Below are positions 27,821 through 43,890 of a stretch of 43,890 nt of DNA, piece by piece (positions within the stretch are counted from its first letter, which is position 1; the number at the start of each line of letters is the position of its first letter). The translations under genes and the position numbers were made by a program. The stretch is taken from the IMG/VR virus record IMGVR_UViG_2821013286_000001, positions 64,001-107,890 of that record; one strand, written 5' to 3'. The stretch comes from a virus. Its lineage: Duplodnaviria; Heunggongvirae; Uroviricota; Caudoviricetes. The notes under the pieces were generated by a model. That model had not been told where the DNA came from, ran no database searches, and worked only from the letters and a program-made list of their open reading frames with translations.

Positions 27821-29299
27821 ATGCTGAATAATATTGACGAAGATATTTCCGTACATGCGCTCCTGGTCGAGCTGCGCGCCACAAACGCGCGTGCTGAAAA
27901 GGAAGAGATCATCAGACAGATGCTGGACATCGATCTTGGCCGCAAGGTGCTGTATCACGCATCCTCGCCGACGATCACTTACGGCATCGATCCGCGCAAG
28001 ATCGACATTTCAGACACTGATGGCCGCCGAACTATGCGTTTCCGCTGGCCGCTCGTCGTAAAGTTCCTCGATGCGTTGGCGACACGCGAGTTGTCCGGTA
28101 AGGCGGCAGAAGCTGAAGTCAGCAATATGCTTGGTACATTCCGAGACGAGGGCAGGGAACTACTCTACTCGGTTCTGCGAAAGGATCTGCGTGCCGGTAT
28201 TGGTATCAGCCTGATCAATTCGGTCGAGCCTGGCTTCATTCCGGAATTCAAGGTGATGCGTGCAAAGCCTTATGAGGCGCACCGCATCGAGGGTAAAAAG
28301 TGCTATGCGGAGTGGAAGCTCGACGGACAGCGAACTACATTCCTATGTCATGAAGGCAATGGCGGCTTTTACACCAGATCCGGCAAGCTCGTTCCGGCAC
28401 TCTCTCACGCAATCGCACCTGTGCTAATGGTCGCGCGGAATCTGGCGGCAACGATACCGGATATTCTCGGCAAGCCAGAATCTCTGTCGTTTGCTATCGA
28501 CAGCGAAGCGATCATGGGTCTGTTCTCGGAGACCGGCAAGCTTCGTCGTAAAGGCAAACAGGCTGAAGCCTGTGAGCTGCACGTTTTCGAAGTGCTATCC
28601 TATGACGAGTTCATGGGCGTCACCAAATCGCCGGACTATTCTGTTCGTCGCAAGCGCGTCGAGGAGTTCGTTCGCGCCGGCTGGAAATTACTTGAAGGAA
28701 ATCAGGCAAATCTCTTGCAAATGACGCCGCGCTTTCCAGTCAAGGATGATGCAGAGATCCAGGCTCTCTTTGAAAAGGCGCGCAACACGACACTGGCGTC
28801 TTATCTGGCTCGCGGCGACGACGAGCTGGAGCAGAAACTGCTTTTGACGACAATCGATAAGCACACCGGCGAGCCGCAGGTGCTCGAAGGTCTGATCGTG
28901 AAAACGGAAGAGGGCATCTATGAGCCACGACAGTCGTTTTCATGGTTGAAGCTCAAGCCAGAGGAAACGCTCGATCTTCGTGTGATCGGCGCGTATCCAG
29001 GTGAGCCGGAGACGAAATACGAACACTGCCTCGGTGGCATTATTGTCGATCACAATGGTGTGGCGGTGAATGTCGGCGGCGGGATCTCCGATAAGGAACG
29101 AGAAGAAATCTGGCAGGACTATATCGCGGACAAAAACGCGATGAATGATCGGTTCCTGACCGTTGAAGAATTCGTTGGTGGACGACTAATCGGCCGGCTC
29201 GCAGAAATCGAGTTTTCCGAAGTCACTCCTGACGGATCGCTGCGCCATCCGCGTTTCATTCGCTTCCGCGATGATAAAGATGGCGAGGTTGCGGACTAA
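27821..29299 (+). CDS. lig: ATP-dependent DNA ligase
   Basis: KxDG 'EWKLDGQR', 'EGLIVK', 'WLKLKP', OB-fold end 'GSLRHPRFIRFRDDK'. Confidence 0.93.
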   Translation: MLNNIDEDISVHALLVELRATNARAEKEEIIRQMLDIDLGRKVLYHASSPTITYGIDPRKIDISDTDGRRTMRFRWPLVVKFLDALATRELSGKAAEAEVSNMLGTFRDEGRELLYSVLRKDLRAGIGISLINSVEPGFIPEFKVMRAKPYEAHRIEGKKCYAEWKLDGQRTTFLCHEGNGGFYTRSGKLVPALSHAIAPVLMVARNLAATIPDILGKPESLSFAIDSEAIMGLFSETGKLRRKGKQAEACELHVFEVLSYDEFMGVTKSPDYSVRRKRVEEFVRAGWKLLEGNQANLLQMTPRFPVKDDAEIQALFEKARNTTLASYLARGDDELEQKLLLTTIDKHTGEPQVLEGLIVKTEEGIYEPRQSFSWLKLKPEETLDLRVIGAYPGEPETKYEHCLGGIIVDHNGVAVNVGGGISDKEREEIWQDYIADKNAMNDRFLTVEEFVGGRLIGRLAEIEFSEVTPDGSLRHPRFIRFRDDKDGEVAD

Positions 29300-29395
29300 C
29301 TATCTGCAATCGTTGACTTGCCGACAGTGCAGTGCCATATCATGTGTGTACTGCATTGCTTCGGCGGTGTTGTTACCTAATGTTTTTGTGAAATT

Positions 29396-29419
29396 GCTCC
29401 CCTTTTGGGGAGCCTTTTT
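29396..29419 (+). terminator. Rho-independent terminator between convergent ligase and repC
   Basis: GCTCCCC-TTTT-GGGGAGC followed by CTTTTT. Confidence 0.75.
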
Positions 29420-30501
29420 CATTCACGCCTCCGCATCTTGCGCAGCTCAGCGCTCAAATCGAAGCGACCTTCAGCCGTCATTCGCGCCAATGTCCGGAAA
29501 TAACCGCCAAAATTCTGGATCTGTTTTGTGCCAGGTTTCGGCCGCGCCTGCATTTGCACTGTGTAGAAGAACAATTTCGCCGCAAAAACAGCACCAATCT
29601 TCTCGCGCGCCTCATCCCAGGCAGCTTCACTCAATCCACACATGCCGCGCAGCTGGACGACGCGTCCCACCAGTTCGTTCTCGGTTGTTACGGGACCAGT
29701 TACGTCAGCAGCGTCTGCACAAGTCTCCACGCATTCCCGTAAGCTCGGTTCCGCCGTCAGCTTTTCCTCAAAAGCCTGCTCACAAAAATTGAAATCGTTG
29801 TTGTTATCTATGTGGCGGCAAACCGTGCCGTCAGAGGCGGTAATTCTTTCTTCTATCTGAAGCCTTAGATCGTGCCATTCAGGCAAGATATCCACAGGGT
29901 CCGCAAAGACGCGTCTCGACGGCGTTTTGCGATTGAGTGCCGCAAGTGCATTTGTCAGGTCGCTAACGTCTGAGCCTGTTTCGAGCAGCACAACCAGTCC
30001 ATCATTGATGAATTTACGGCAGAGCGTGATCTCGTCGTAAGCCTGAGCTACGCCACGCCGAACCTCGTTGATCAGATAAGATTGGTTATGGAACTCTGTG
30101 CGCTGTTGCCACATTGGAGCTAGGTCAAACCCATAGGCACGAATGATGTTTCCGGATGGATCGAACTGCGCAAAGCGTTTGCCGTTCGGTGAGCGCACAG
30201 CAGCAATGACGTTGGCTTCGCACAATGCTGCAAGCGCAAGCCGCACCGAGCGCTCCGACAGGCCGGTAGCGTCAACGAGATATTCATTGGAAGGCCAAAC
30301 GATGGCACGTTCCTCGCACAGCTTGTTGCCGTAACAGGCAGTTAGCTCTTTGAGAACTTGACGTGCCGGTGCAGACAAAGCGAGCGCCTTGCCAGCAATC
30401 GTCGCGACTTTGAGGAGTTCAGAGCGCGTGATTGGCTCCGACAATGACTCATATTCGAAGGCAACGTCAGGCCGTCGCCAGGACCGTAAAATCCTCGCCA
30501 T
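29419..30501 (-). CDS. repC: repABC-family replication initiator RepC (no adjacent repA/repB)
   Basis: 'IVWPSNEYL', 'SERSVRLALAALCEANVI..RSPNGKRF', 'AYGFDLAPM', C-terminal 'IQNFGGYFRTL...GRFDL' match RP-C and RP-C_C motifs; likely start ATG 30501 (alternatives 30540/30549). Confidence 0.9.
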   Translation of the reverse strand: MARILRSWRRPDVAFEYESLSEPITRSELLKVATIAGKALALSAPARQVLKELTACYGNKLCEERAIVWPSNEYLVDATGLSERSVRLALAALCEANVIAAVRSPNGKRFAQFDPSGNIIRAYGFDLAPMWQQRTEFHNQSYLINEVRRGVAQAYDEITLCRKFINDGLVVLLETGSDVSDLTNALAALNRKTPSRRVFADPVDILPEWHDLRLQIEERITASDGTVCRHIDNNNDFNFCEQAFEEKLTAEPSLRECVETCADAADVTGPVTTENELVGRVVQLRGMCGLSEAAWDEAREKIGAVFAAKLFFYTVQMQARPKPGTKQIQNFGGYFRTLARMTAEGRFDLSAELRKMRRRE

Positions 30502-30512
30502 AAGGTAAGTCC

Positions 30513-30529
30513 TTGTGTCAAAGACACAA
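30513..30529 (-). promoter_or_regulatory. Stem-loop in repC leader (S-element-like)
   Basis: TTGTGTC-AAA-GACACAA perfect 7-bp stem, 11 nt upstream of ATG 30501. Confidence 0.5.
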
Positions 30530-30555
30530 AAGCTCTCCATCGCCAACAAAGCTTG

Positions 30556-30584
30556 TTGACGTGATTCGCGGACTACCCTATAAA
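30556..30584 (+). promoter_or_regulatory. ctRNA promoter TTGACG-N17-TATAAA containing a GANTC site
   Basis: Hexamers at 30556-30561 and 30579-30584; TTGAC-GTGATTCG resembles, from recall, the conserved repABC ctRNA promoter; GATTC at 30563-30567. Confidence 0.78.
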
Positions 30585-30589
30585 GGAGA

Positions 30590-30676
30590 TGCCTTTAAAC
30601 GAGAGCGAACTTGTTGTTTGGGCAGTCCATATGGATTTCAAAGACCTGGAGCGCCAACTTCAGGTCTTTTGCTTTT
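30590..30676 (+). ncRNA. Counter-transcribed antisense RNA (repABC ctRNA/RepE-like), ~85 nt
   Basis: Promoter above plus terminator; antisense to the repC leader; 5' end inferred. Confidence 0.72.
30640..30676 (+). terminator. ctRNA terminator
   Basis: 12-bp stem AAAGACCTGGAG / CTTCAGGTCTTT (one G-U), loop CGCCAA, then TGCTTTT. Confidence 0.75.
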
Positions 30677-30890
30677 ATGCCGTTTTCTTTTCAGTTTCCG
30701 TAGCGGTTAATTCCTCAATCAGTGATTTCAACGCCTCACCCCTGCCGGACAAGTTCCGAGCGCGTCTGACTTCATCCAATTTTTCTTTTGTGTCTGCATC
30801 GACCCAAAAGCTCAGCTGGACGAGATTGTTCTGTTCAGCGCGGACACGGTACTTACGCTTGTACTCACGCCAGGGAGTTGCGGTACTCAT
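30675..30890 (-). CDS. Small ribbon-helix-helix (CopG-like) protein upstream of repC
   Basis: 71 aa from ATG 30890 with GGAG RBS; 'VQLSFWVDADTKEKLDEVRRARNLSGRGEALKSLIEE' fits the beta-helix-helix pattern. Confidence 0.6.
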   Translation of the reverse strand: MSTATPWREYKRKYRVRAEQNNLVQLSFWVDADTKEKLDEVRRARNLSGRGEALKSLIEELTATETEKKTA

Positions 30891-30922
30891 CTGTTTCACA
30901 CTCCGTAAACCATAAGTGCATC

Positions 30923-30970
30923 TAGTCCAAACCACGATTCTCGTGATTCTGCCAAGCACATTTTGGACTA
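30923..30970. repeat. 9-bp inverted repeat TAGTCCAAA/TTTGGACTA enclosing CACGA-TTC-TCGTG and two GANTC sites
   Basis: Arms 30923-30931 and 30962-30970; GATTC at 30936-30940 and 30945-30949. Confidence 0.6.
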
Positions 30971-31031
30971 TTCACGTTTTTCGCTTAATTCTGGATTTTC
31001 TCCTTAAATAAGCCGTTATTCAAAAAAGTAG

Positions 31032-31045
31032 GGTAAAGATTTACA
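31032..31045. promoter_or_regulatory. Variant operator-like motif GGTAAAGATTTACA
   Basis: One mismatch to the core, in the divergent AT-rich control region. Confidence 0.45.
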
Positions 31046-31097
31046 AGATAATTATCCGTAAGTATTTGATTTTCCGTATTTAACATTCTGTGATGAA

Positions 31098-31133
31098 AAT
31101 AAATATTGACATTATTCGCTCTCATCCTATGTT
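31098..31133 (+). promoter_or_regulatory. Putative repressor promoter TTGACA-N16-TATGTT overlapped by variant motif AATAAATATTGACA
   Basis: TTGACA 31106-31111 forms the right end of the motif; TATGTT at 31128-31133. Confidence 0.55.
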
Positions 31134-31248
31134 CGCGAATAACAAAAATATAAAAGCCACGGCACACCCGACACGCTCGTACTTATAAGCTCATTAATCA
31201 ATCAAGAGATTGAGAATTGTAATGCGAGAGGAATAAATGAGGTAAATT

Positions 31249-31665
31249 ATGGTAAGTGGGACGCAACAGGGCGTTAAGGAGTTTTCTAGGTTTTTAAGCC
31301 AGGCTCTGGATAACGTATCGAACAAATATTCGCAGCAGGAAATCGGGTACGCTCTCGGCTGGACATCGCCGAGTATCCTATCCACCTTGAAGGCTGGTCG
31401 AGCAAAAGTTCCACTCGATAAAATCGCACCGCTCTCACGCTATCTTGGCGTAGATCGTTCGCGTCTGTTTCGAATGGCTCTCGCTCAGTATTATGAAGGC
31501 GAAGCTCTGGCAAACATCGCCGAGTGCCTCAATGAGTTGCCGGATGACGAGGAAAAGCTTCTTCGCAAGTACCGGTTGCTGAAGGATAAGGCCGGCGCCT
31601 CCTCCAAGGTTGATCTTGACGAGGTGTTGAATGCTCTCGCTGAGTCCAAAGAAGCCTCTGTATAA
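31249..31665 (+). CDS. XRE/Cro-C1 HTH transcriptional regulator (candidate repressor)
   Basis: 'YSQQEIGYALGWTSPSILSTLKAGRAKVPLDKIAPLSRYLGVD'; GAGG RBS; divergent from RHH-repC; followed by hairpins. Confidence 0.82.
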   Translation: MVSGTQQGVKEFSRFLSQALDNVSNKYSQQEIGYALGWTSPSILSTLKAGRAKVPLDKIAPLSRYLGVDRSRLFRMALAQYYEGEALANIAECLNELPDDEEKLLRKYRLLKDKAGASSKVDLDEVLNALAESKEASV

Positions 31666-32069: not shown

Positions 32070-34202
32070 ATGAACATCCACACGTCAGCCGGTGCGCTCA
32101 ACGAACTGAAGGAGGTTATTCAGAAGGTCGTTCCGCTGATCGTCGGTAAGGGAATTCGAGTGACACAGCGCGGCTCCCAAGCTTTCGTGCAAATTGACCC
32201 GAAGACGCGGAAGCCGGAATTCGTGAACATTCCGAACGTTTCAGACAACGCTTCTCCTGATTTTATTGCGGCATTGAACGGCTTCATTGATCACGAATGC
32301 GCTCACATACTCTTTTCCGACTTTGATGTTTATGGTGGCTCGCTCGATCGTGCGGCCGAAACTGGCGGACTGCTGCCGATGCTCCACAATATCGTTGAAG
32401 ATACGATGATCGAGCGGCTAATGGTCGAACAGTTTCCTGGCTCTGCAAAGAACCTGTCCGAGCTTCGCAAGCGTTACCTTCTCAATATCACTGCACAGGC
32501 ACTGAAAACGACCAGCTCGCCGGAAGAAGCATTCCGGTGCCTGGCCGTGCCAATGGTTCGCGCACTGGCTGGTAACAGCGAAATGCGCGACTTCATGGAC
32601 GCTGGCAAGCATTGGGATAATCCCGTCGTGAAGTACATCATGGACACGCTTTCCAAGAAGTCCATGCAGCTGATTGCCAAGGCGCGCGATTCCAAACAGA
32701 CGCTGGCTGTTGCCGAGGAGCTTTACAAGCTGCTCAAGCCAAATGAACCCAAGCCGCCGCAGGAAAGCGACGAGGAAGGTGAAGGCTCTGGAGCGTCCTC
32801 ACCTGCACCGAAAGGCGCAGAAGGTAAAAAAGGAAAGGGTGAGAAAGGCGAGGCTGACAGCGAAGCTTCCGCAGGCGGCGGTTCGAAAGATGAAGACGGT
32901 GAGGAAGAATCTGATGGCAAGGGTTCCTCTGGAGGCGCACCTAGCGATGGCGAGGAAGAAGGTGAAGCAGAGGGCGACGAAAACGACGATGCTGATGAGG
33001 ATTCCTCTGACGCGGCGGAAGGTGATGCCGAAGATGAAGATGAAAGCGACGGCGATGGCGACAGCGAAGATCCGTCCGATGGTGAAAAAGGCGCTACTGG
33101 CGGCTCTCCTTCGAAGTCCAACTTCTTCGACGCCGATAATAGCGGTGAACGTGATACGGATAATACCGGCGTAGGATCTGGCGCGTCCTCTGAGACGATG
33201 TTTGATTTTGACGAGAACTCGCTTGATGGCGTTGATTTCAGCGAAACGCTCGCTAACGAGATCGAGAAAGAGGCAGTCGAAATGATGAATGCCTCTGACT
33301 ACAACGTCTACACCACGGAGTTTGACCAAATCGAACCGCCAAAGGTTCCAAGCGATTATCGCGAGAAGGAATCCGCACGCGACATGTCGGCGATGGACGA
33401 ACAAACATCACAAATGACGGGCCGGATGTCCAAGGACATTGAGCGCGTTATGGCTTCTCGGTCCTACAACATTCGCATACCTGGCTACCGCAAAGGCAAG
33501 CTTCACACGTCCTCGCTGCATCGCGTCGTACAAGGCGATATGCGCGTTTTCACGCAGAAGCAGGAAAAGGTGTCGACGGAAACGGCAGTCTCCTTGCTGA
33601 TCGATAATTCCGGCTCGATGGGCGGCGCGAAGATGCGCCTTGCAATGCTCTCTGGCTACGCTCTGTCGCGAACGCTGGATCGTTTGAAAATTGCGCATGA
33701 AGTGCTCGGCTTCACGACTGGCGGATGGGGCGGTCATCGCATTCCGCAGGACGTTCTGCAGGCAATGTATGAGGAAGCACGTACGTCAGGCATTCAGTAT
33801 GACCGCGACTTTCCGCTCGCGATGCCGATCTACAAGTCCTTTGCCGAACGGCTCGATACGACCGTCAAGGAGCGCATTGCGTTCGCCATGAACAAACAAA
33901 AAGGTCTCAACGGCAACATTGACGGCGAATGTGTGCGTATTGCGGCTAACCGGCTGCATCAGCGCATGGAAAAGCGCAAGGTTATGCTCGTTCTGTCCGA
34001 TGGTTGGCCGGCTGGCAGCTCGCGGTCAGGTCCGCACCTGAAAACGACCGTTGAACAGGTCACAAAGGAAGGTATCGACTGCGTGGGTATCGGTATTATG
34101 GATAAGTCGGTTTCAGCCTACTATCCAAACCATACGGTTCTCAACAATATCGAGGACCTTCCCGGTCAGGTAATGAACGAATTGAAGAAGATCCTCCTTT
34201 GA
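32070..34202 (+). CDS. cobT: CobT-like protein: HExxH N-terminus, acidic linker, C-terminal vWA
   Basis: 'GFIDHECAHILF..HNIVEDTMIE'; long D/E/G/S linker; MIDAS 'LIDNSGSMGG', 'EVLGFTT', 'LVLSDGWP'. Confidence 0.8.
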   Translation: MNIHTSAGALNELKEVIQKVVPLIVGKGIRVTQRGSQAFVQIDPKTRKPEFVNIPNVSDNASPDFIAALNGFIDHECAHILFSDFDVYGGSLDRAAETGGLLPMLHNIVEDTMIERLMVEQFPGSAKNLSELRKRYLLNITAQALKTTSSPEEAFRCLAVPMVRALAGNSEMRDFMDAGKHWDNPVVKYIMDTLSKKSMQLIAKARDSKQTLAVAEELYKLLKPNEPKPPQESDEEGEGSGASSPAPKGAEGKKGKGEKGEADSEASAGGGSKDEDGEEESDGKGSSGGAPSDGEEEGEAEGDENDDADEDSSDAAEGDAEDEDESDGDGDSEDPSDGEKGATGGSPSKSNFFDADNSGERDTDNTGVGSGASSETMFDFDENSLDGVDFSETLANEIEKEAVEMMNASDYNVYTTEFDQIEPPKVPSDYREKESARDMSAMDEQTSQMTGRMSKDIERVMASRSYNIRIPGYRKGKLHTSSLHRVVQGDMRVFTQKQEKVSTETAVSLLIDNSGSMGGAKMRLAMLSGYALSRTLDRLKIAHEVLGFTTGGWGGHRIPQDVLQAMYEEARTSGIQYDRDFPLAMPIYKSFAERLDTTVKERIAFAMNKQKGLNGNIDGECVRIAANRLHQRMEKRKVMLVLSDGWPAGSSRSGPHLKTTVEQVTKEGIDCVGIGIMDKSVSAYYPNHTVLNNIEDLPGQVMNELKKILL

Positions 34203-36670: not shown

Positions 36671-36886
36671 TATAGCTTTTATGCCGTCGCGAAGACACCG
36701 ACCGAGAATGGGTACGTCGATAGTTCGCTAACCGCCAAGCTGAAACATACGCCACCCACCTACGCCGACCTTCAGGCATGGCAGGACTACACGAAGAAGT
36801 ACATCGAGGAACAGGGCAGCAAAGTGACTGGAACACCCATCATCACTTTCTTCGCACGAATTGCAGAAGCACAGAGGACCGATTGA
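36662..36886 (+). CDS. Small hypothetical protein
   Basis: 74 aa, GGAG RBS, fills the gap before dnaE. Confidence 0.55.
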   Translation: MFTYSFYAVAKTPTENGYVDSSLTAKLKHTPPTYADLQAWQDYTKKYIEEQGSKVTGTPIITFFARIAEAQRTD

Positions 36887-36887
36887 T

Positions 36888-39800
36888 ATGGAAACCATAC
36901 TTGCGGCACGTTCCGAATTCTCGCTTGGCGAAGCAATTCTCGATACTGGCTACATCATCGATCAGGCAAAAGCGCTGAACATGACCTGTGCGGCTTTGAC
37001 TGACACGATGACGATCTCCGGCATGGTCGATTTTACGAATAAAGCGGTCAAGGAAGAGATCAAGCCAATTATCGGTGTTCGGTTGCGTTTGACCGAGGAA
37101 CCGCTCTGGCGACCCGCTTCTGGTCAAAAGAAGAAGCATATGCCGCGCACCTACTTCCTGAGCGCTTATGCGCGCACAGAAGAAGGCATGAAGCTGCTTT
37201 ATCGTGTGCTGACGGCGGCAAACAGTGAGCCAAGGTTCTATTACGAAGCCAAATACGGCATCGACGAGTTTATCACGGACCTCACCAACTGCAACAACGG
37301 CGACTTGGCGATTGTTTACGACACCATGAACTCGCTGCTGGAGCATCCAAAGCTTGCAGACATCGCTGAACGCATCAAAGCCAGTGGCTGTGAAGCGATC
37401 TATGCGCCATTTGCAGCGGTTGCGACCCCTTACTTTGCGCGCATCACCGAAAAGGCGATGGATCTTGTTGAGAAAGGTTTCGCAGAACCGCTCGCAGTCC
37501 GCGCATCCCTCTACGCGACTGGCGAAGCAGACGCAAAAGACGCGATGCTTGGCGTTGTTGGCAATCAAAAGATCTCCAGCGGCATGTTCAAACTGCCGCA
37601 TCAGAGAAATATGCACGTCATGTCGGAAGCGGAGTTCGCGCGCGAGCTGCTGGAAACAGCAAAGCTTTTGAAGGCGTCCGGTCGCGCAACGCTGACCGCA
37701 CACATGAAGACGGCTATCGCCAATACGGACGTATTTCCGACACTGATCACCTATCAGTGGGAGCAGAAGGCCCCTTCCCTTCCAAAGCTGGCGCCAAACG
37801 AGTTCGCGGCGGTCGCAGCCGAATGCAAGAAAGGCTGGACCGAGCGCTTCTCAACGGACGTTTTTGGTCACAAGCCTGGTCCGGATGAATTGCGCGATGT
37901 CTATATGCCGCGCCTGAAGTATGAGCTGGATACGCTCAAGCGTCTGGACTTTTGCGGCTACTTCTTGCTCGTGCAGAATATCGTTCAACACGCAAAGTCC
38001 AGCGGCATCATGGTTGGCCCAGGTCGCGGTTCTGTTGGCGGCAGCCTGGTTGCTTATCTGATGGGCATCACCGATTGCGATCCTATTCGCTTCGGACTGA
38101 TGTTTGAGCGCTTCATCAATCCTGAGCGTATCGATCTTCCCGACGCCGATCTTGATTTCATGGCAACGCGGCGTCACGAGATTTTCGAATATCTCTATAA
38201 GCGATTTGGCGACGATTATGTTGCTGGCGTGTCGAACTATGGCGCGCTTCTCAGTCCGTCTGCGATCCGATCCGTTGCGAAGCTGTTCCAGCTGCCAGAA
38301 CGTGAGTTCGAAGTCTCGAAAATGGTGCCCAAGAAGCACGGCCAGCCAGTGTCGCTTGAGGAAGCTACCGAGGAAGTCCCGGAAATCAAAACCTACGCCG
38401 ATGCAAATCCCGTCGTCTGGGGCTTTACCAAGACTTTGGAAGGCAAGATGCGCAGTTATGGTCAGCACGCCGCAGGCATGATCGTCGCTGGCGAACCGTT
38501 GATCAATCGCGCCGTGCTCGAAAAGCGCACGAACGGCCAGGTTGTGAATTGGGACAAGCGTATCGTTGAAAGCCAAGGTCTGGTGAAGATGGATATTCTT
38601 GGTCTCTCCACGCTCGATCTGATTTCGCTCACGCTCAACTATATCCGCGAAAATTACCCGTCAGTGCCTGATATTTATTCAATTCCGCTAGATGACGAGA
38701 AGGTTTTGGCGAATTTCGCAGAAGGCAACACGGTTGGCGTGTTCCAGTTCGAAAGTCCTGGCATGCGAAATCTGCTGCGCAATTGCGCCAAGGGCGGCAC
38801 GATCACCTTTGAAGATATCACAGCCGCGACCGCCCTTTATCGTCCTGGTCCGATGGACTCCGGCATGATGGACAACTTTGTAAAGCGTAAGCAAGGAGCG
38901 GAAAGCGTTTCATACGATCATCCTCTTATGGAGCCAATCCTGAATGAGACGCTTGGCGTTATCATCTATCAGGAACAGGTTATGCGCATTTCACAGGTGA
39001 TCTGCGGCTATTCCGGTGCTGACGCCGACAAGCTTCGCAAGATCATGGGTAAGAAAGAACCTGCTGAAATGGCCAAGCAGAAGGAAAAATTCGTTCAAGG
39101 TGCGATTGATACGGTTGGCGCTGCTGAAAAGTGGGCTGACCAGCTATTCGATAATATTGCGAAGTTCGCCGGTTACGGCTTCAACAAAAGCCACTCGATC
39201 GAATATACGCTGATCTCCTATCAGTCGATGTACCTGAAGACATACTATCCGACCGAGTTCTATGCAGCGGCGCTGTCAATTCTCGATGAAGACAAGCTTA
39301 TTGGCATCGTGCGTGACGCTTCGCGTGCCGGGATCGATGTCGTCGTGCCGGATATCAATGAATCCACAAACCGCTTCGAGATCCTGAATGCGCGTAAGCT
39401 CCTTATGCCATTCAATCGCATCAAGGGTATTTCTGAAAAGACAGGCGACGCAATTCTGACGGCGAGAGCTGCTGGCAAATTCACGTCGATCACAGACTTC
39501 CTCGATCGTGTTGAGAAAAGGCGCTGTAACGCAAAGCATCAGGATCTATTGAACAAGGTCGGCGCTTATTGCTCCATCGATCCCGCTTCTATTCCTGTCA
39601 ATGATCCGAGCCGCATTCTCGATCAATATGAACTGCTGCCGGGATTGGTAACAAAGGCTGTGCCTATCAACCGGTCCTTCAGCAATGACAAGGCGACGCG
39701 CGAGATCGTTACGGACGTAGTGAATAACTATCACGCTGCGCATGGCGCGACTTCTGCCAACCCAGACGGCCTGCCAGTCAAGCCGATCTTTGGCAAACAT

Positions 39801-40250
39801 GCAGCTTTCATGATCGTCACTGATGCACCGCATTCGGAGGATGAAAAGGCAGGTCAGCTTGGCAATGCCAAAAGCTCGTCCGCCCTTTGGGATGCTCTCG
39901 ACATTAATGGGTTGAAGAAGAACGACATCTATTGGACTTCCGTCGTGAAGCGTCCAAAGACTGGCAAGTTCCTCAACCCCGAAGAAGTTGCGCTCTATTC
40001 GCCGTATCTCGATCAGGAAATCGAATATACCGGCACTCCTGTTGTTGTCGCTTGCGGATCTGCCGCAATCCGTCACTTCGATCCGGAATTCAAAGGTCGC
40101 GCATCCGAGCGAGCCGGTGAAATTTTCTATGACAAGAAACGCGACTTGAACGTCGTGATTGGCTTCAATCCAGGTGAGATTTATTTCGATCCTGACAAAC
40201 TCGATCTACTGGTGAATACAATCACCGTGGCACTGGATCTCGTCGGTTAG
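36888..40250 (+). CDS. dnaE: DNA polymerase III alpha subunit (C-family) with C-terminal UDG-like domain
   Basis: 'GPGRGSVGGSLVAYLMGITD', 'FERFINPERIDLPDADLDF', 'KMDILGL', 'VFQFES', 'FAGYGFNKSHS'; start ATG 36888 after GAGG. Confidence 0.96.
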   Translation: METILAARSEFSLGEAILDTGYIIDQAKALNMTCAALTDTMTISGMVDFTNKAVKEEIKPIIGVRLRLTEEPLWRPASGQKKKHMPRTYFLSAYARTEEGMKLLYRVLTAANSEPRFYYEAKYGIDEFITDLTNCNNGDLAIVYDTMNSLLEHPKLADIAERIKASGCEAIYAPFAAVATPYFARITEKAMDLVEKGFAEPLAVRASLYATGEADAKDAMLGVVGNQKISSGMFKLPHQRNMHVMSEAEFARELLETAKLLKASGRATLTAHMKTAIANTDVFPTLITYQWEQKAPSLPKLAPNEFAAVAAECKKGWTERFSTDVFGHKPGPDELRDVYMPRLKYELDTLKRLDFCGYFLLVQNIVQHAKSSGIMVGPGRGSVGGSLVAYLMGITDCDPIRFGLMFERFINPERIDLPDADLDFMATRRHEIFEYLYKRFGDDYVAGVSNYGALLSPSAIRSVAKLFQLPEREFEVSKMVPKKHGQPVSLEEATEEVPEIKTYADANPVVWGFTKTLEGKMRSYGQHAAGMIVAGEPLINRAVLEKRTNGQVVNWDKRIVESQGLVKMDILGLSTLDLISLTLNYIRENYPSVPDIYSIPLDDEKVLANFAEGNTVGVFQFESPGMRNLLRNCAKGGTITFEDITAATALYRPGPMDSGMMDNFVKRKQGAESVSYDHPLMEPILNETLGVIIYQEQVMRISQVICGYSGADADKLRKIMGKKEPAEMAKQKEKFVQGAIDTVGAAEKWADQLFDNIAKFAGYGFNKSHSIEYTLISYQSMYLKTYYPTEFYAAALSILDEDKLIGIVRDASRAGIDVVVPDINESTNRFEILNARKLLMPFNRIKGISEKTGDAILTARAAGKFTSITDFLDRVEKRRCNAKHQDLLNKVGAYCSIDPASIPVNDPSRILDQYELLPGLVTKAVPINRSFSNDKATREIVTDVVNNYHAAHGATSANPDGLPVKPIFGKHAAFMIVTDAPHSEDEKAGQLGNAKSSSALWDALDINGLKKNDIYWTSVVKRPKTGKFLNPEEVALYSPYLDQEIEYTGTPVVVACGSAAIRHFDPEFKGRASERAGEIFYDKKRDLNVVIGFNPGEIYFDPDKLDLLVNTITVALDLVG

Positions 40251-40881: not shown

Positions 40882-41047
40882 TACATGTCGAGCGGTTTTA
40901 GAACCGTTCCTGCTCTAACCCACTCTCAAGCTCGGTATGTATATTTCAGAACATAGATATCTAGGAACCTAAGTTTCTATGTTCAAAGAAGCATTACGCA
41001 ACAGGCATTTAGCCAATCGCAAAGAGCATTAAGCAAAGGAAAATATT

Positions 41048-42004
41048 ATGAGCGCATTGTTGGCACTTATCTCGAAGGCAAAGCAGAAATACTCGTCCGC
41101 AGACGACGCTTTGCGACCCAAGGATGGCAAGAACACCTATCGTATTCTTGCACCCACGAAGGAACAGGCTGAGTGGGTCGGTCCCGATGGTGAGTTCTGG
41201 CAGGACGTTGGCGTGCACTGGATCAAGGCTGATCTGAACGGCAAGCCGCTTGCAGTTGTCGGTGACGCTTCGGTTTGCTTCGGCCAACTTAATCCCCTCG
41301 ACGCAATCATCGAAAAGGCTGTTAGCCAGTCGATCGGTGAAGAAGACAAGAAGCTTGCTGAAAGCTGGCGCTCGCAGAAGCGTATCCTTCTGAACGTTCT
41401 CGACCGTTCGGACAAGAACGCTGAAAATCCGCAGGTTCTCGAAGTGACGCGCACGACTTGGGCGAGCATTCTCGAACAGGCTCAGACGTTCGCGCAGGCC
41501 GGCTTCAACATCTTCGATCAGGCGATGGGTCTCGATATCAATATCGTCAAGACCGGCAAGAACCTGAATACGAAGTACGATGTGTCCATCACGCCGCTCA
41601 TGCCTGGTCAGTCGCCTGTACCGGTGTCGGATGAAGTTATGTCGAAGTGCGTGGATCTGCCGAATTGGGTCCGCAACAAATACTTCAAGGGTGAAGAAGA
41701 CAAGGCAGCAGCTCTGATCGCTCAGACTGCCGGTATTGCTCTTCCTGGCGGCGCACCTGCTGTCACAGCTCGCACTCCGACCGCAGCACTGACTTCCGGC
41801 GCAGCTGTCGCTGAAGGAGCACAGGTTGCGGCAATGACCGCTGCTCCGGCAGCTGTTGCAGCCGCAGCTCCTGCCGCAACGGCAGCAGCAGTTGAAGAAG
41901 CCGTTGTCGTTGAGGCTGCAACCGCAGGCACCGCGACTGTCGCAACGGAAGATCCAGACCAGGCTCTGGCCGAGCTGGATGCTCTGCTTAACGGCCAACT
42001 CTAA
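41048..42004 (+). CDS. T4 gp32-like single-stranded DNA-binding protein
   Basis: 'GKNTYRIL', 'GVHWIK', 'GLDINIVKTGKNLNTKYDVS'; Ala-rich linker and acidic amphipathic tail 'EDPDQALAELDALLNGQL'. Confidence 0.7.
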   Translation: MSALLALISKAKQKYSSADDALRPKDGKNTYRILAPTKEQAEWVGPDGEFWQDVGVHWIKADLNGKPLAVVGDASVCFGQLNPLDAIIEKAVSQSIGEEDKKLAESWRSQKRILLNVLDRSDKNAENPQVLEVTRTTWASILEQAQTFAQAGFNIFDQAMGLDINIVKTGKNLNTKYDVSITPLMPGQSPVPVSDEVMSKCVDLPNWVRNKYFKGEEDKAAALIAQTAGIALPGGAPAVTARTPTAALTSGAAVAEGAQVAAMTAAPAAVAAAAPAATAAAVEEAVVVEAATAGTATVATEDPDQALAELDALLNGQL

Positions 42005-42049: not shown

Positions 42050-43003
42050 ATGTCAAAGCGGATCATGCTGATCGACGGCAACAACATCGGTCATCAAGCC
42101 AACAACATGCCAAAGCTGGCAGTCGGCAATCAAGAAACCCAGGCGATTTACGGCTATCTCAAAATCCTTCGCTCGCTCGTTCAGAAGTTTCCCAATACCA
42201 GCATGGTCGTCCTTTGGGACGGCATCGGTTGGCGCAAATCGATCTTTAACGAGTACAAGGAAAACCGTAAGCGCGCGGAGACGAAGAACGACCTGAAAAT
42301 TCAAGAACGAAAGAGAGCTTACGCAACGCAGCGTCCTTTTATCCAGCAGGCAACCAAGCACCTCGGCATTACCCAGATGGTAGCAACCAATATGGAAGCC
42401 GACGACCTGGCTGCAATTCTGACGAACCGGTACAAGGCGCAAGACACAAGCATTCTTCTCGTAACTGGCGATCAGGACTGGCTTCAGCTTGTCGATCGGA
42501 ACGTCATGTGGCGCGACCAGATTAACAATCAGTCCGTCACGCCTTCAAACTTCGAAGAAAAGACAGGCGTCAAAACCGTCCGTCAGTTCGTTGAAAAGAA
42601 GGCACTCACTGGAGACACCGGCGACAACGTTCCACCAACCGGTGGCATCGGCGAGAAATATGCGAATGAGTTTTTCGCGTCTTACGGATCATTTCGCGAA
42701 TTTGCGCAGATGGTGACGCTGGAGAAGTCCATCGATCCCGCTTCGCTACCGAAACGCTATCGCGACCTGATCGACAATGAGGACAAGATTTTCAAATTCA
42801 TGCGCAATTTGAAACTTGTAGATCTCAATACGTCCGCGCGACCGAAGCCGGAAGGTCTTCTGAATATAGCCGCGCCAATATCGATTGAAGGGTTTCAGGC
42901 GTTTTGTGAGGAGTTTCTGTTCAACACGATCCTCAAAGACATTCACGCCTGGCTCGCACCATTTCCCACTTATCAGCGCTCACTCATGAGCGCGGCAGCT
43001 TGA
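42050..43003 (+). CDS. 5'-3' exonuclease / flap endonuclease (T4 RNase H, T5 D15-like)
   Basis: 'LIDGNN', 'VLWDG', 'EYKENR', 'EADD', 'TGDQDW.QL', 'GDTGDNVPPTGGIGEKYA'; ATG 42050 after GGAGG. Confidence 0.9.
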   Translation: MSKRIMLIDGNNIGHQANNMPKLAVGNQETQAIYGYLKILRSLVQKFPNTSMVVLWDGIGWRKSIFNEYKENRKRAETKNDLKIQERKRAYATQRPFIQQATKHLGITQMVATNMEADDLAAILTNRYKAQDTSILLVTGDQDWLQLVDRNVMWRDQINNQSVTPSNFEEKTGVKTVRQFVEKKALTGDTGDNVPPTGGIGEKYANEFFASYGSFREFAQMVTLEKSIDPASLPKRYRDLIDNEDKIFKFMRNLKLVDLNTSARPKPEGLLNIAAPISIEGFQAFCEEFLFNTILKDIHAWLAPFPTYQRSLMSAAA

Positions 43004-43014
43004 GAGATTTTATT

Positions 43015-43890
43015 ATGTCTTCACCCGATGAAATTGCAAAAGCCCTCGCAGGTGTTATTGGCGAGAATGACCCAGAAAGCACCGTCACGCAGTATCTCGA
43101 TACTGGATATGTCGAACTGAATAACGTGCTTTCGGCTCGTTTTGACGGCGGCTTCCCAGTCGGCCGTATCGTTGAAATGGCCGGCCCACCGTCTGCCGGT
43201 AAAACCGCGCTTGCAACGCGTGCAATGGCGGCGGCACAGAAGATGGGCGGCATTGCCGCCTTCAAAGACCACGAACGCTCGTTCTCGCTCCAGTTGGCGC
43301 CAAATCTCGGCCTCGATACCAGTGCCGGTCGGTTCATTTTCAAGAAGCCGGTGACGTTCGAACAGTCCATCGACAATACGCACAAGATCCTTGATACGAT
43401 CCGCTCCAAGAAGCTGATCGATATCACTGCTCCGATCTGCATTGTCTTTGATAGTCTCGCATCAATGGTGCCGCAGTCAGTTCTGATCGACGCCAAGGGC
43501 AAGGAGCGTGACGCTTCGAGCCGCAACATGAACGACAATACAGCTCTGGCTCGTGCGACTTCGGCTCATATGCCGACGCTGGCGATGATCGCGGAAGAAT
43601 ACAATGCGAGCCTTATCTTCCTGAACCAAGTGCGCACCAAGATCGGCGTCATGTATGGTGATCCGCGTACGACGCCAGGCGGCGATGCTCCGAAGTTCTA
43701 TGCTTCAACTCGCATCATGCTTGGCGCTAAACAGATCAAGGACAAGACAGGCATCGTTCTCGGTCAGGAAGTCACGGCGAACATTATCAAAAATAAGGTG
43801 TCGCGACCGTTCGGCTCGGCTCAGTGGCGCTTCATGTATAATGCGGACGGCACCGGTCGTTTCGATTTTGAGCGCTCCACTGTCGATTAT
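43015..43890 (+). CDS. recA: RecA/UvsX-like recombinase (3'-truncated by window edge)
   Basis: My translation gives 'GGFPVGRIVEMAGPPSAGKT', 'VFDSLASM', 'FLNQVRTKIGVMYGDPRTTPGGDAPKFYASTRI', 'KNKVSRPF'; absent from the ORF track because it runs off the window. Confidence 0.95.
   Translation, partial: MSSPDEIAKALAGVIGENDPESTVTQYLDTGYVELNNVLSARFDGGFPVGRIVEMAGPPSAGKTALATRAMAAAQKMGGIAAFKDHERSFSLQLAPNLGLDTSAGRFIFKKPVTFEQSIDNTHKILDTIRSKKLIDITAPICIVFDSLASMVPQSVLIDAKGKERDASSRNMNDNTALARATSAHMPTLAMIAEEYNASLIFLNQVRTKIGVMYGDPRTTPGGDAPKFYASTRIMLGAKQIKDKTGIVLGQEVTANIIKNKVSRPFGSAQWRFMYNADGTGRFDFERSTVDY

Follow-up and report, generated by a model that had tools for sequence, protein, structure and literature searches.

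What does a plasmid-type repC gene do in the genome of a tailed phage, where it stands without repA and repB? The gene lies in a 43,890-nucleotide (nt) stretch of a Caudoviricetes record from IMG/VR (IMGVR_UViG_2821013286_000001). We call this whole stretch the window; it covers positions 64001-107890 (G000:C1:64001-107890), i.e. the last 41%, of the 107,890-bp virus record, and coordinates below are window positions unless given as genome positions. Together with a small gene for a ribbon-helix-helix (RHH) protein and a predicted antisense RNA between the two, repC forms a leftward unit that we consider, with good confidence, to be the plasmid-mode replicon of a siphophage-type phage-plasmid of ~107.8 kb that belongs to the pLM21S1/RHEph10 lineage. 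The element is a new, distant member of a published family, and the concept of a RepC-driven phage-plasmid has been in print since 2015. The two genes of the unit are:

29419-30501, minus strand: repC, 360-amino-acid (aa) replication initiator (RP-C, RP-C_C, NF040974)
30675-30890, minus strand: RHH (CopG-type) gene, 71 aa, first in the repC operon, probable autorepressor

The open reading frame (ORF) of repC spans 29419-30549, and ATG 30501 was taken as the most likely start, giving 360 aa, because AAGGA sits 8 nt ahead of it and the 360-aa product is that of a database protein (P0001). The profile search of 29419-30501 proposed beforehand gave matches in both halves of the protein: the N-terminal RP-C domain scores 109.4 bits (2.3e-31; Pfam gathering score 24.4) and the C-terminal RP-C_C domain 40.9 bits (2.5e-10; gathering score 32.6). 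The NCBIfam model NF040974 (RepABC_RepC) gives 151.1 bits, with an equivalog cut-off of 150. RepCs of canonical length align to the window RepC in two pieces and at lower scores. For the RHH gene, whose ORF spans 30675-30959, a GGAG before ATG 30890 and the lengths of its relatives favour the 71-aa product, which matches RHH_1 with 20.7 bits (cut-off 20.5). RHH_1 is also matched by five out of eight homologues, a profile of the eight matches the NikR RHH domain (E 2e-4), and the counterparts in pLM21S1 and pRlX6 are annotated as RHH proteins. As the sequence-only reading had it, RHH-repC is the sole genuine minus-strand unit in the window and is convergent with the ligase gene, and no repA, repB or integrase lies within the window.

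A tblastn search with RepC found ten Rhizobium phages at ~40% identity, including RHEph10, RHph_N1_10/N1_15/N2_6, X66, Y2_11, B1VFA and V1VFA-S. In PLSDB, 1995 records match RepC; four plasmids of 115-119 kb, circular and non-mobilizable, are among the best:

R. beringeri pRlX6: 119,417 bp, circular plasmid from a complete genome
Sinorhizobium sp. LM21 pLM21S1: 117,539 bp, circular plasmid from a complete genome
Shinella zoogloeoides plasmid: 117,457 bp, circular plasmid from a complete genome
Pararhizobium qamdonense p5: 115,652 bp, circular plasmid from a complete genome

These four plasmids, RHEph10, B1VFA and three Logan contigs (RepC 58%, 45-47% and ~35-38% identical) keep one common gene order, in which DnaB, primase, (WGR) and, further on, ligase are followed by the leftward RHH-repC pair and then by a rightward helix-turn-helix (HTH) gene, a small ORF, CobT, CobS, a sigma factor and DnaE. 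Matched by tblastn at 30-70% identity, 65-72 out of 153 ORFs are collinear with pLM21S1, RHEph10 and the Shinella plasmid. These relatives are visible at the protein level only, since megablast with a 24-kb part of the window gave just one match among phages, 286 bp of DnaE (in RHph_Y2_11), and none among plasmids. The GC content is 52.4% here versus 59-60% in the relatives, which suggests a host of lower GC than Rhizobium. A search of viral contigs with RepC alone found no related loci there; the large terminase subunit (TerL) as query did retrieve relatives. Relatives recognised by TerL alone also lie on ~96-114-kb contigs in six draft genomes, and they include ~110-kb contigs of Acinetobacter, Massilia and Magnetospirillum. 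For the plasmid state of the RepC lineage there are finished circular plasmid records for four relatives and, for this element, record ends that overlap by 95 bp, which fits a circular assembly. We infer the plasmid state of the window element itself from its relatives, and plasmid maintenance is the likely function of the cassette here.

One of the four plasmids shows a peculiarity of its own: pRlX6 is, of the plasmid copies, the one nearest to phage B1VFA, and its annotation splits repC into two overlapping coding sequences (L012:5751-6897), while CobT, ligase and DnaB likewise look fragmented. These gene breaks could mean that the plasmid-prophage is decaying, or that sequencing introduced a series of frameshifts.

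We placed the window RepC in a tree of 101 RepCs (the window RepC, 10 with known context and 90 that represent clusters from an exhaustive search with phmmer; the RepC of pRmeGR4a is excluded). One 25-row clade, with a Shimodaira-Hasegawa-like approximate likelihood ratio (SH-aLRT) support of 99, takes in all eight phage-plasmid RepCs. Within it, the window RepC joins two uncultured Logan relatives (58% and 45-47% identical; support 95) in a separate subclade, and two more rows of the clade, the most basal one included, also stand in the ligase/CobT context. Among 20 near-complete IMG/VR relatives, RP-C is present in nine out of nine with a TerL at least 64% identical and in none of the 11 with a TerL at or below 60%; the IMG/VR copy of the Magnetospirillum contig is without RP-C.

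These data bear on the idea, put forward in the sequence-only reading, of a captured RepC, in its strongest form a RepC and its RNA taken recently from a host repABC plasmid into a phage-plasmid of the SSU5/pHCM2 type, either as a passenger or as a newly adopted replicon. RepC is indeed otherwise typical of alphaproteobacterial plasmids, as the PLSDB matches illustrate, the unit lies on the minority strand, and over 66% of its length CobS has 48% identity with the SSU5 protein. However, even where RepC identity falls to 37%, repC keeps its slot and orientation in every relative examined; the tree unites the phage-plasmid RepCs in one clade and puts the window RepC with the two Logan relatives of shared gene order; RP-C tracks TerL similarity; and the GC content of repC (0.54) fits that of the genome (0.524). 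We regard a recent capture as very unlikely. Judged by the tree and the shared gene order, the cassette is old and has been co-inherited in this phage branch, possibly from one ancient acquisition of RepC by the phage lineage. The kinship with SSU5 and pHCM2 did not hold up except at a distance: SSU5 is not among the TerL records listed and no close similarity to its backbone was found, and RHEph10 has been placed outside the SSU5 group (PMC7969092).

The place that the cassette occupies is bordered as follows:

27821-29299, plus strand: ATP-dependent DNA ligase, left border of the slot, convergent with repC (Pfam DNA_ligase_A_M, OB_2, A_C)
29396-29413, no strand assigned: GC-rich hairpin between ligase and repC, putatively a terminator
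32070-34202, plus strand: CobT-like VWA protein, right border of the slot (CobT_C 3e-35), found in the same place also in RepC-less relatives

In one RepC-less relative (112.8 kb) the slot holds, on the minus strand, an initiator of the RPA family (PF10134, 2e-74), a tyrosine recombinase and an HTH protein (L146:2415-4884); in a second, the same slot and strand hold ParA and a tyrosine recombinase (L147:3918-6626). By its contents, the slot seems to be where this supergroup swaps plasmid modules. We take these contents as good indirect evidence that RepC does a plasmid job, because the RepC-less relatives keep other plasmid functions in the same slot.

Solo repC genes are also found on 257-318-kb conjugative plasmids, among ordinary plasmid genes: in R. 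beringeri pRlX1 (L140:4583-6071) the locus includes an RHH gene together with an antisense promoter and hairpin as described below, and in R. leguminosarum pRL9b2 (L142:4914-6065) repC is alone. The RepCs of pRlX1 and pRL9b2 nest within the phage-plasmid clade, a position that suggests transfer between phage-plasmids and large plasmids. A wider proposal, which we hold tentatively and rate somewhat short of an even chance, is that the gap between ligase and CobT is a fixed 'replicon socket' of ~110-kb phage-plasmids in Alpha-, Beta- and Gammaproteobacteria, and that the RHH-antisense-RepC cassette entered it once, in one alphaproteobacterial branch, diverged with the backbone and later escaped to found the solo replicons of the repC family. 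If this is true, the window extends that branch to a lower-GC host group.

Between the stop codon of the RHH gene and repC, the sequence has the features of a small antisense RNA gene:

30510-30529, minus strand: leader hairpin with 7-bp arms, the 3' arm lying over the repC Shine-Dalgarno sequence, with a putative role in RNA control
30556-30584, plus strand: antisense promoter-like site, TTGACG-17 nt-TATAAA, with a GANTC (30563-30567) in the spacer
30591-30678, plus strand: predicted ~85-nt antisense RNA, ending in a 12-bp hairpin (30640-30669) and a run of U

The terminator is oriented for the plus strand only and no plus-strand gene ends at it. The predicted RNA folds with a minimum free energy of -32.1 kcal/mol (z -4.1). 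All seven lineage members first examined have TTGAC-N17, a -10-like hexamer and an RNA of 75-111 nt that ends in a 12-15-bp hairpin and a U-run, with stems that differ in sequence. Among further IMG/VR relatives the hairpin was found in eight out of nine, seven of them with an upstream TTGAC-N17, so that across the lineage the antisense hairpin is present in 15 out of 16 and the promoter-like site in 14 out of 16. Conservation was judged by folding and scanning each sequence, as a MAFFT alignment lost the register of the hairpins. An antisense RNA of conserved promoter-hairpin architecture is predicted here, and its transcription would run opposite to that of the repC operon.

GANTC, the target of CcrM, is depleted nearly five-fold (50 in the window versus 239 expected; 137 in the genome versus 597 expected), yet four sites cluster at 30446-30949: the antisense promoter has one in its spacer, and two more directly precede the RHH gene. 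The antisense promoter is accompanied by a GANTC in 15 out of 19 lineage sequences. The motif CGAATCAC is not enriched across the window (21 matches versus 55 expected, allowing one mismatch), and the interest lies in the GANTC core. In Agrobacterium, GANTC sites cluster at the promoters of repABC operons, at repE promoters and at origins, and CcrM and GcrA control RepC (PMC11514494). By analogy with repABC replicons, the placement in the window suggests a coupling to the host cell cycle. Inside repC itself one stretch stands out:

29782-29871, no strand assigned: A+T-rich dip in repC (nt 631-720 of the gene), candidate origin (oriV)

This is the GC minimum of the gene, and a dip is found at the equivalent relative place in eight out of ten RepC genes compared. 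Replication of p42d depends on an A+T region within repC (nt 450-850), and RepC alone is sufficient for it (PMC3155836).

Upstream of the operon lie a divergent control region and a second regulator gene:

30891-31248, no strand assigned: A+T-rich divergent control region between the RHH and HTH genes, GC 0.28-0.38
31106-31133, plus strand: promoter-like site of the HTH gene, within the control region
31249-31665, plus strand: HTH regulator of the XRE/Cro-CI type, 138 aa, divergent from the repC operon, candidate repressor for lysogeny or the plasmid state

The control region contains GANTC at 30936 and 30945, a 9-bp inverted repeat (30923-30931 / 30962-30970), and, at 31034 and 31100, one-mismatch copies of a palindromic operator that occurs genome-wide. 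The 138-aa regulator keeps its position in all relatives, and HTH_3 is matched by eight out of nine of its homologues (best E 4.8e-7).

The core of this operator, TAAAYRTTTA, has 17 copies at no more than one mismatch, versus 2.35 expected, mostly ahead of operons, and one imperfect copy in the RHH/HTH region overlaps the -35 of the promoter-like site of the HTH gene. The positions in the window are:

841, 2526, 7571, 8538, 15690, 17489, 21601, 23329, 25843, 31757, 34238, 36659, 40870: TAAAYRTTTA sites
16055, 31034, 31100, 32041: one-mismatch copies

A partition system was found elsewhere in the record. A type Ib ParA (213 aa; genome 49543-50184, minus strand; CbiA 28.9 bits versus 25.4) is followed by an overlapping gene for ParG (87 aa; genome 49283-49546, minus strand), which passes the Pfam ParG cut-off, and the pair lies 44 kb from repC. 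In all five records tested, ParA is 44-52% identical. No tyrosine or serine recombinase or resolvase reaches its cut-off across the 107.9 kb. On the full record, then, the picture drawn from the window held as regards the missing integrase and fits a circular element, but a partition pair does exist outside the window. We also note two adjacent ParB_N proteins (252 and 222 aa; genome 52073-53496) beside a DEAD/ResIII helicase; both are 48-60% identical in relatives, and they are probably not RepB-like partition proteins, because they are unlinked to ParA or repC.

The same search bears on whether the record could be an integrated prophage, or a chimeric mis-assembly of phage and plasmid, with repC as a passenger. 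Some relatives are labelled 'provirus' in IMG/VR, as this account would have it; however, no integrase or resolvase was found above cut-off, the record ends overlap, and both cassette junctions are kept in independent assemblies, phage isolates and finished plasmids. For want of a recombinase the integrated prophage was rejected, and the account as a whole appears extremely unlikely.

From these features we propose how the replicon may work. RHH and repC would be transcribed leftward from the A+T-rich control region, and the RHH protein probably represses its own operon, taking the regulatory place of RepA/RepB. RepC would initiate in cis at an origin inside repC, for which the A+T dip is the candidate, while the plus-strand antisense RNA would pair with the RHH-repC spacer of the mRNA and limit RepC. 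The GANTC sites at the antisense promoter and before RHH may couple the replicon to the host cell cycle. ParA-ParG would supply segregation in trans, and the DnaB/primase/DnaE set of the phage would carry out the bulk of lytic replication.

Several points weigh against the plasmid-replicon reading. pLM21S1 is not inducible by mitomycin C (PMC4447125) and the phages published from this lineage were obtained as plaque formers, so that infectivity and plasmid carriage are documented in different members only. Over the whole window, Rfam gave no match at gathering thresholds; a search of 29300-31300 at E values up to 10 gave three chance-level matches and none to a counter-transcribed RNA (ctRNA) family. 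The A+T dip is modest (0.42 versus 0.54 for the gene) and is without any GANTC site, and RepC barely meets the NCBIfam equivalog cut-off, which it clears by 1 bit only.

The first two of these points are what a strictly virulent phage would lead one to expect, with RepC as a lytic origin-binding initiator that loads the phage DnaB/primase/DnaE, and with partition and regulator genes that serve otherwise, e.g. in positioning the genome during infection. Isolation as plaque-forming phages is on record for RHEph10, the RHph phages, B1VFA and V1VFA-S (PMC12509600), and repC lies inside the block of replication genes. This is nevertheless improbable: four complete bacterial genomes each contain a syntenic circular plasmid, the ParA-ParG pair and the XRE repressor are conserved, a copy-limiting antisense RNA and CcrM sites would be ill-suited to runaway lytic replication, and the slot of relatives bears alternative plasmid initiators and dimer-resolution recombinases. 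For the plasmid replicon, the sequence-only reading stands as regards the tailed-phage lineage, RepC without repAB, the RHH gene in the place of repAB, the predicted antisense RNA and the separate DnaB/primase/DnaE set, and members of the lineage exist as circular plasmids.

As to whether the element is already described, the literature shows that its lineage is (PMC4447125, PMC5537653, PMC12509600). pLM21S1 and RHEph10 have been described as 'plasmid-like prophages' with a RepC-like replication system (PMC4447125, 2015; PMC5537653, 2017), and pLM21S1 is kept as a plasmid (PMC4447125). B1VFA and V1VFA-S, which have 93-94.5% identity to pRlX6, were reported as possible prophage-plasmids with parA, parB and repC (PMC12509600, 2025). 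RHEph10 and pLM21S1 are listed by Pfeifer et al. 2021, in whose analysis RHEph10 lies on the margin of the Acinetobacter 'AB' community and is excluded from the curated AB group (PMC7969092). The window element resembles pLM21S1, RHEph10, RHph_X66, N1_10, B1VFA, V1VFA-S and pRlX6 in size (~108-122 kb), in the collinear backbone and in the place of RHH-repC between ligase and CobT, and shares with the pLM21S1/RHEph10 lineage a homologous ParA, the absence of an integrase, cobT/cobS and its own sigma factor and DnaE. It is distant from that lineage, with RepC 37-45% and TerL ~65-71% identical, and has no tRNA genes in the whole genome (ARAGORN), in contrast to the 2-3 of B1VFA, V1VFA-S and pLM21S1 (PMC12509600, PMC4447125).

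Among plasmid replicons, the closest parallels are of two kinds. In repC-family replicons (pRmeGR4a; repC2 of pSmeLPU88b), repC occurs without repA/repB and with an antisense RNA just upstream (PMC10194956). The window likewise has repC outside any repA/repB operon, and a predicted antisense RNA directly upstream. The published modules, however, are reported to share their plasmid with a repABC replicon in every case (PMC10194956), whereas the cassette here is the only plasmid-type initiator found and sits on a phage backbone. With repABC replicons (R. etli p42d, Ti plasmids, A. tumefaciens Ch2) the locus shares a two-domain RepC, an upstream antisense RNA (predicted here), an A+T-rich stretch in repC at the place of the p42d origin, and GANTC at the antisense and operon promoters. 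Their arrangement, with repA and repB directly ahead of repC in one operon, was not found: a 71-aa RHH gene stands there instead, and partition would fall to an unlinked type Ib ParA-ParG, whose ParA is the only one in the genome. The RNA is ~85 nt versus 55-59 nt and RepC 360 aa versus ~400-440 aa.

SSU5/pHCM2 and the Acinetobacter 'AB' group are similar in being ~100-110-kb siphophage-plasmids with cobS/cobT, dnaE, phoH and ligase. They have other initiators, whereas RepC is restricted to the sublineage with a TerL at least 64% identical. CobS is also 36% identical to that of Klebsiella phage ST13-OXA48phi12.3, over its full length.

What the window adds is a divergent, lower-GC member of a little-studied rhizobial-type phage-plasmid family, and a replicon anatomy that can be tested: a candidate origin inside repC, a predicted antisense RNA, CcrM sites, and a slot with differing plasmid initiators. 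The antisense RNA and the CcrM sites are not pointed out in the descriptions of the lineage (PMC4447125, PMC5537653, PMC12509600). No long-standing question is opened by this finding.

As to the window itself, it had been taken for a complete tailed-phage genome, which it is not: the terminase (genome 56854-58125), the portal (genome 58193-59806), the ribonucleotide reductase and ParA-ParG all lie upstream of it in the record. The genes named in it are genuine (DnaB, primase, ligase, CobT, CobS, sigma factor, DnaE, a gp32-like single-stranded-DNA-binding protein, 5'-3' exonuclease, RecA, PhoH and tail fibre). Further long ORFs on the minus strand (41009-41998 and 42984-43538) were rejected as shadows of the plus-strand genes for the gp32-like protein and RecA. 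A minus-strand ORF of 175 aa at 1738-2265 overlaps a 123-aa plus-strand ORF, has no Pfam match and found no counterpart by tblastn in pLM21S1, RHEph10 or the Shinella plasmid. A long operon free of GG/CC is absent from the window, where the longest run free of GG/CC is 110 bp. DnaE (36861-40250) bears a C-terminal domain of the uracil-DNA-glycosylase superfamily. In the relative with a RepC 58% identical, DnaE is called as two genes split by a 306-aa ORF (L008:1-4294), and its N-terminal piece gives Hint/intein matches.

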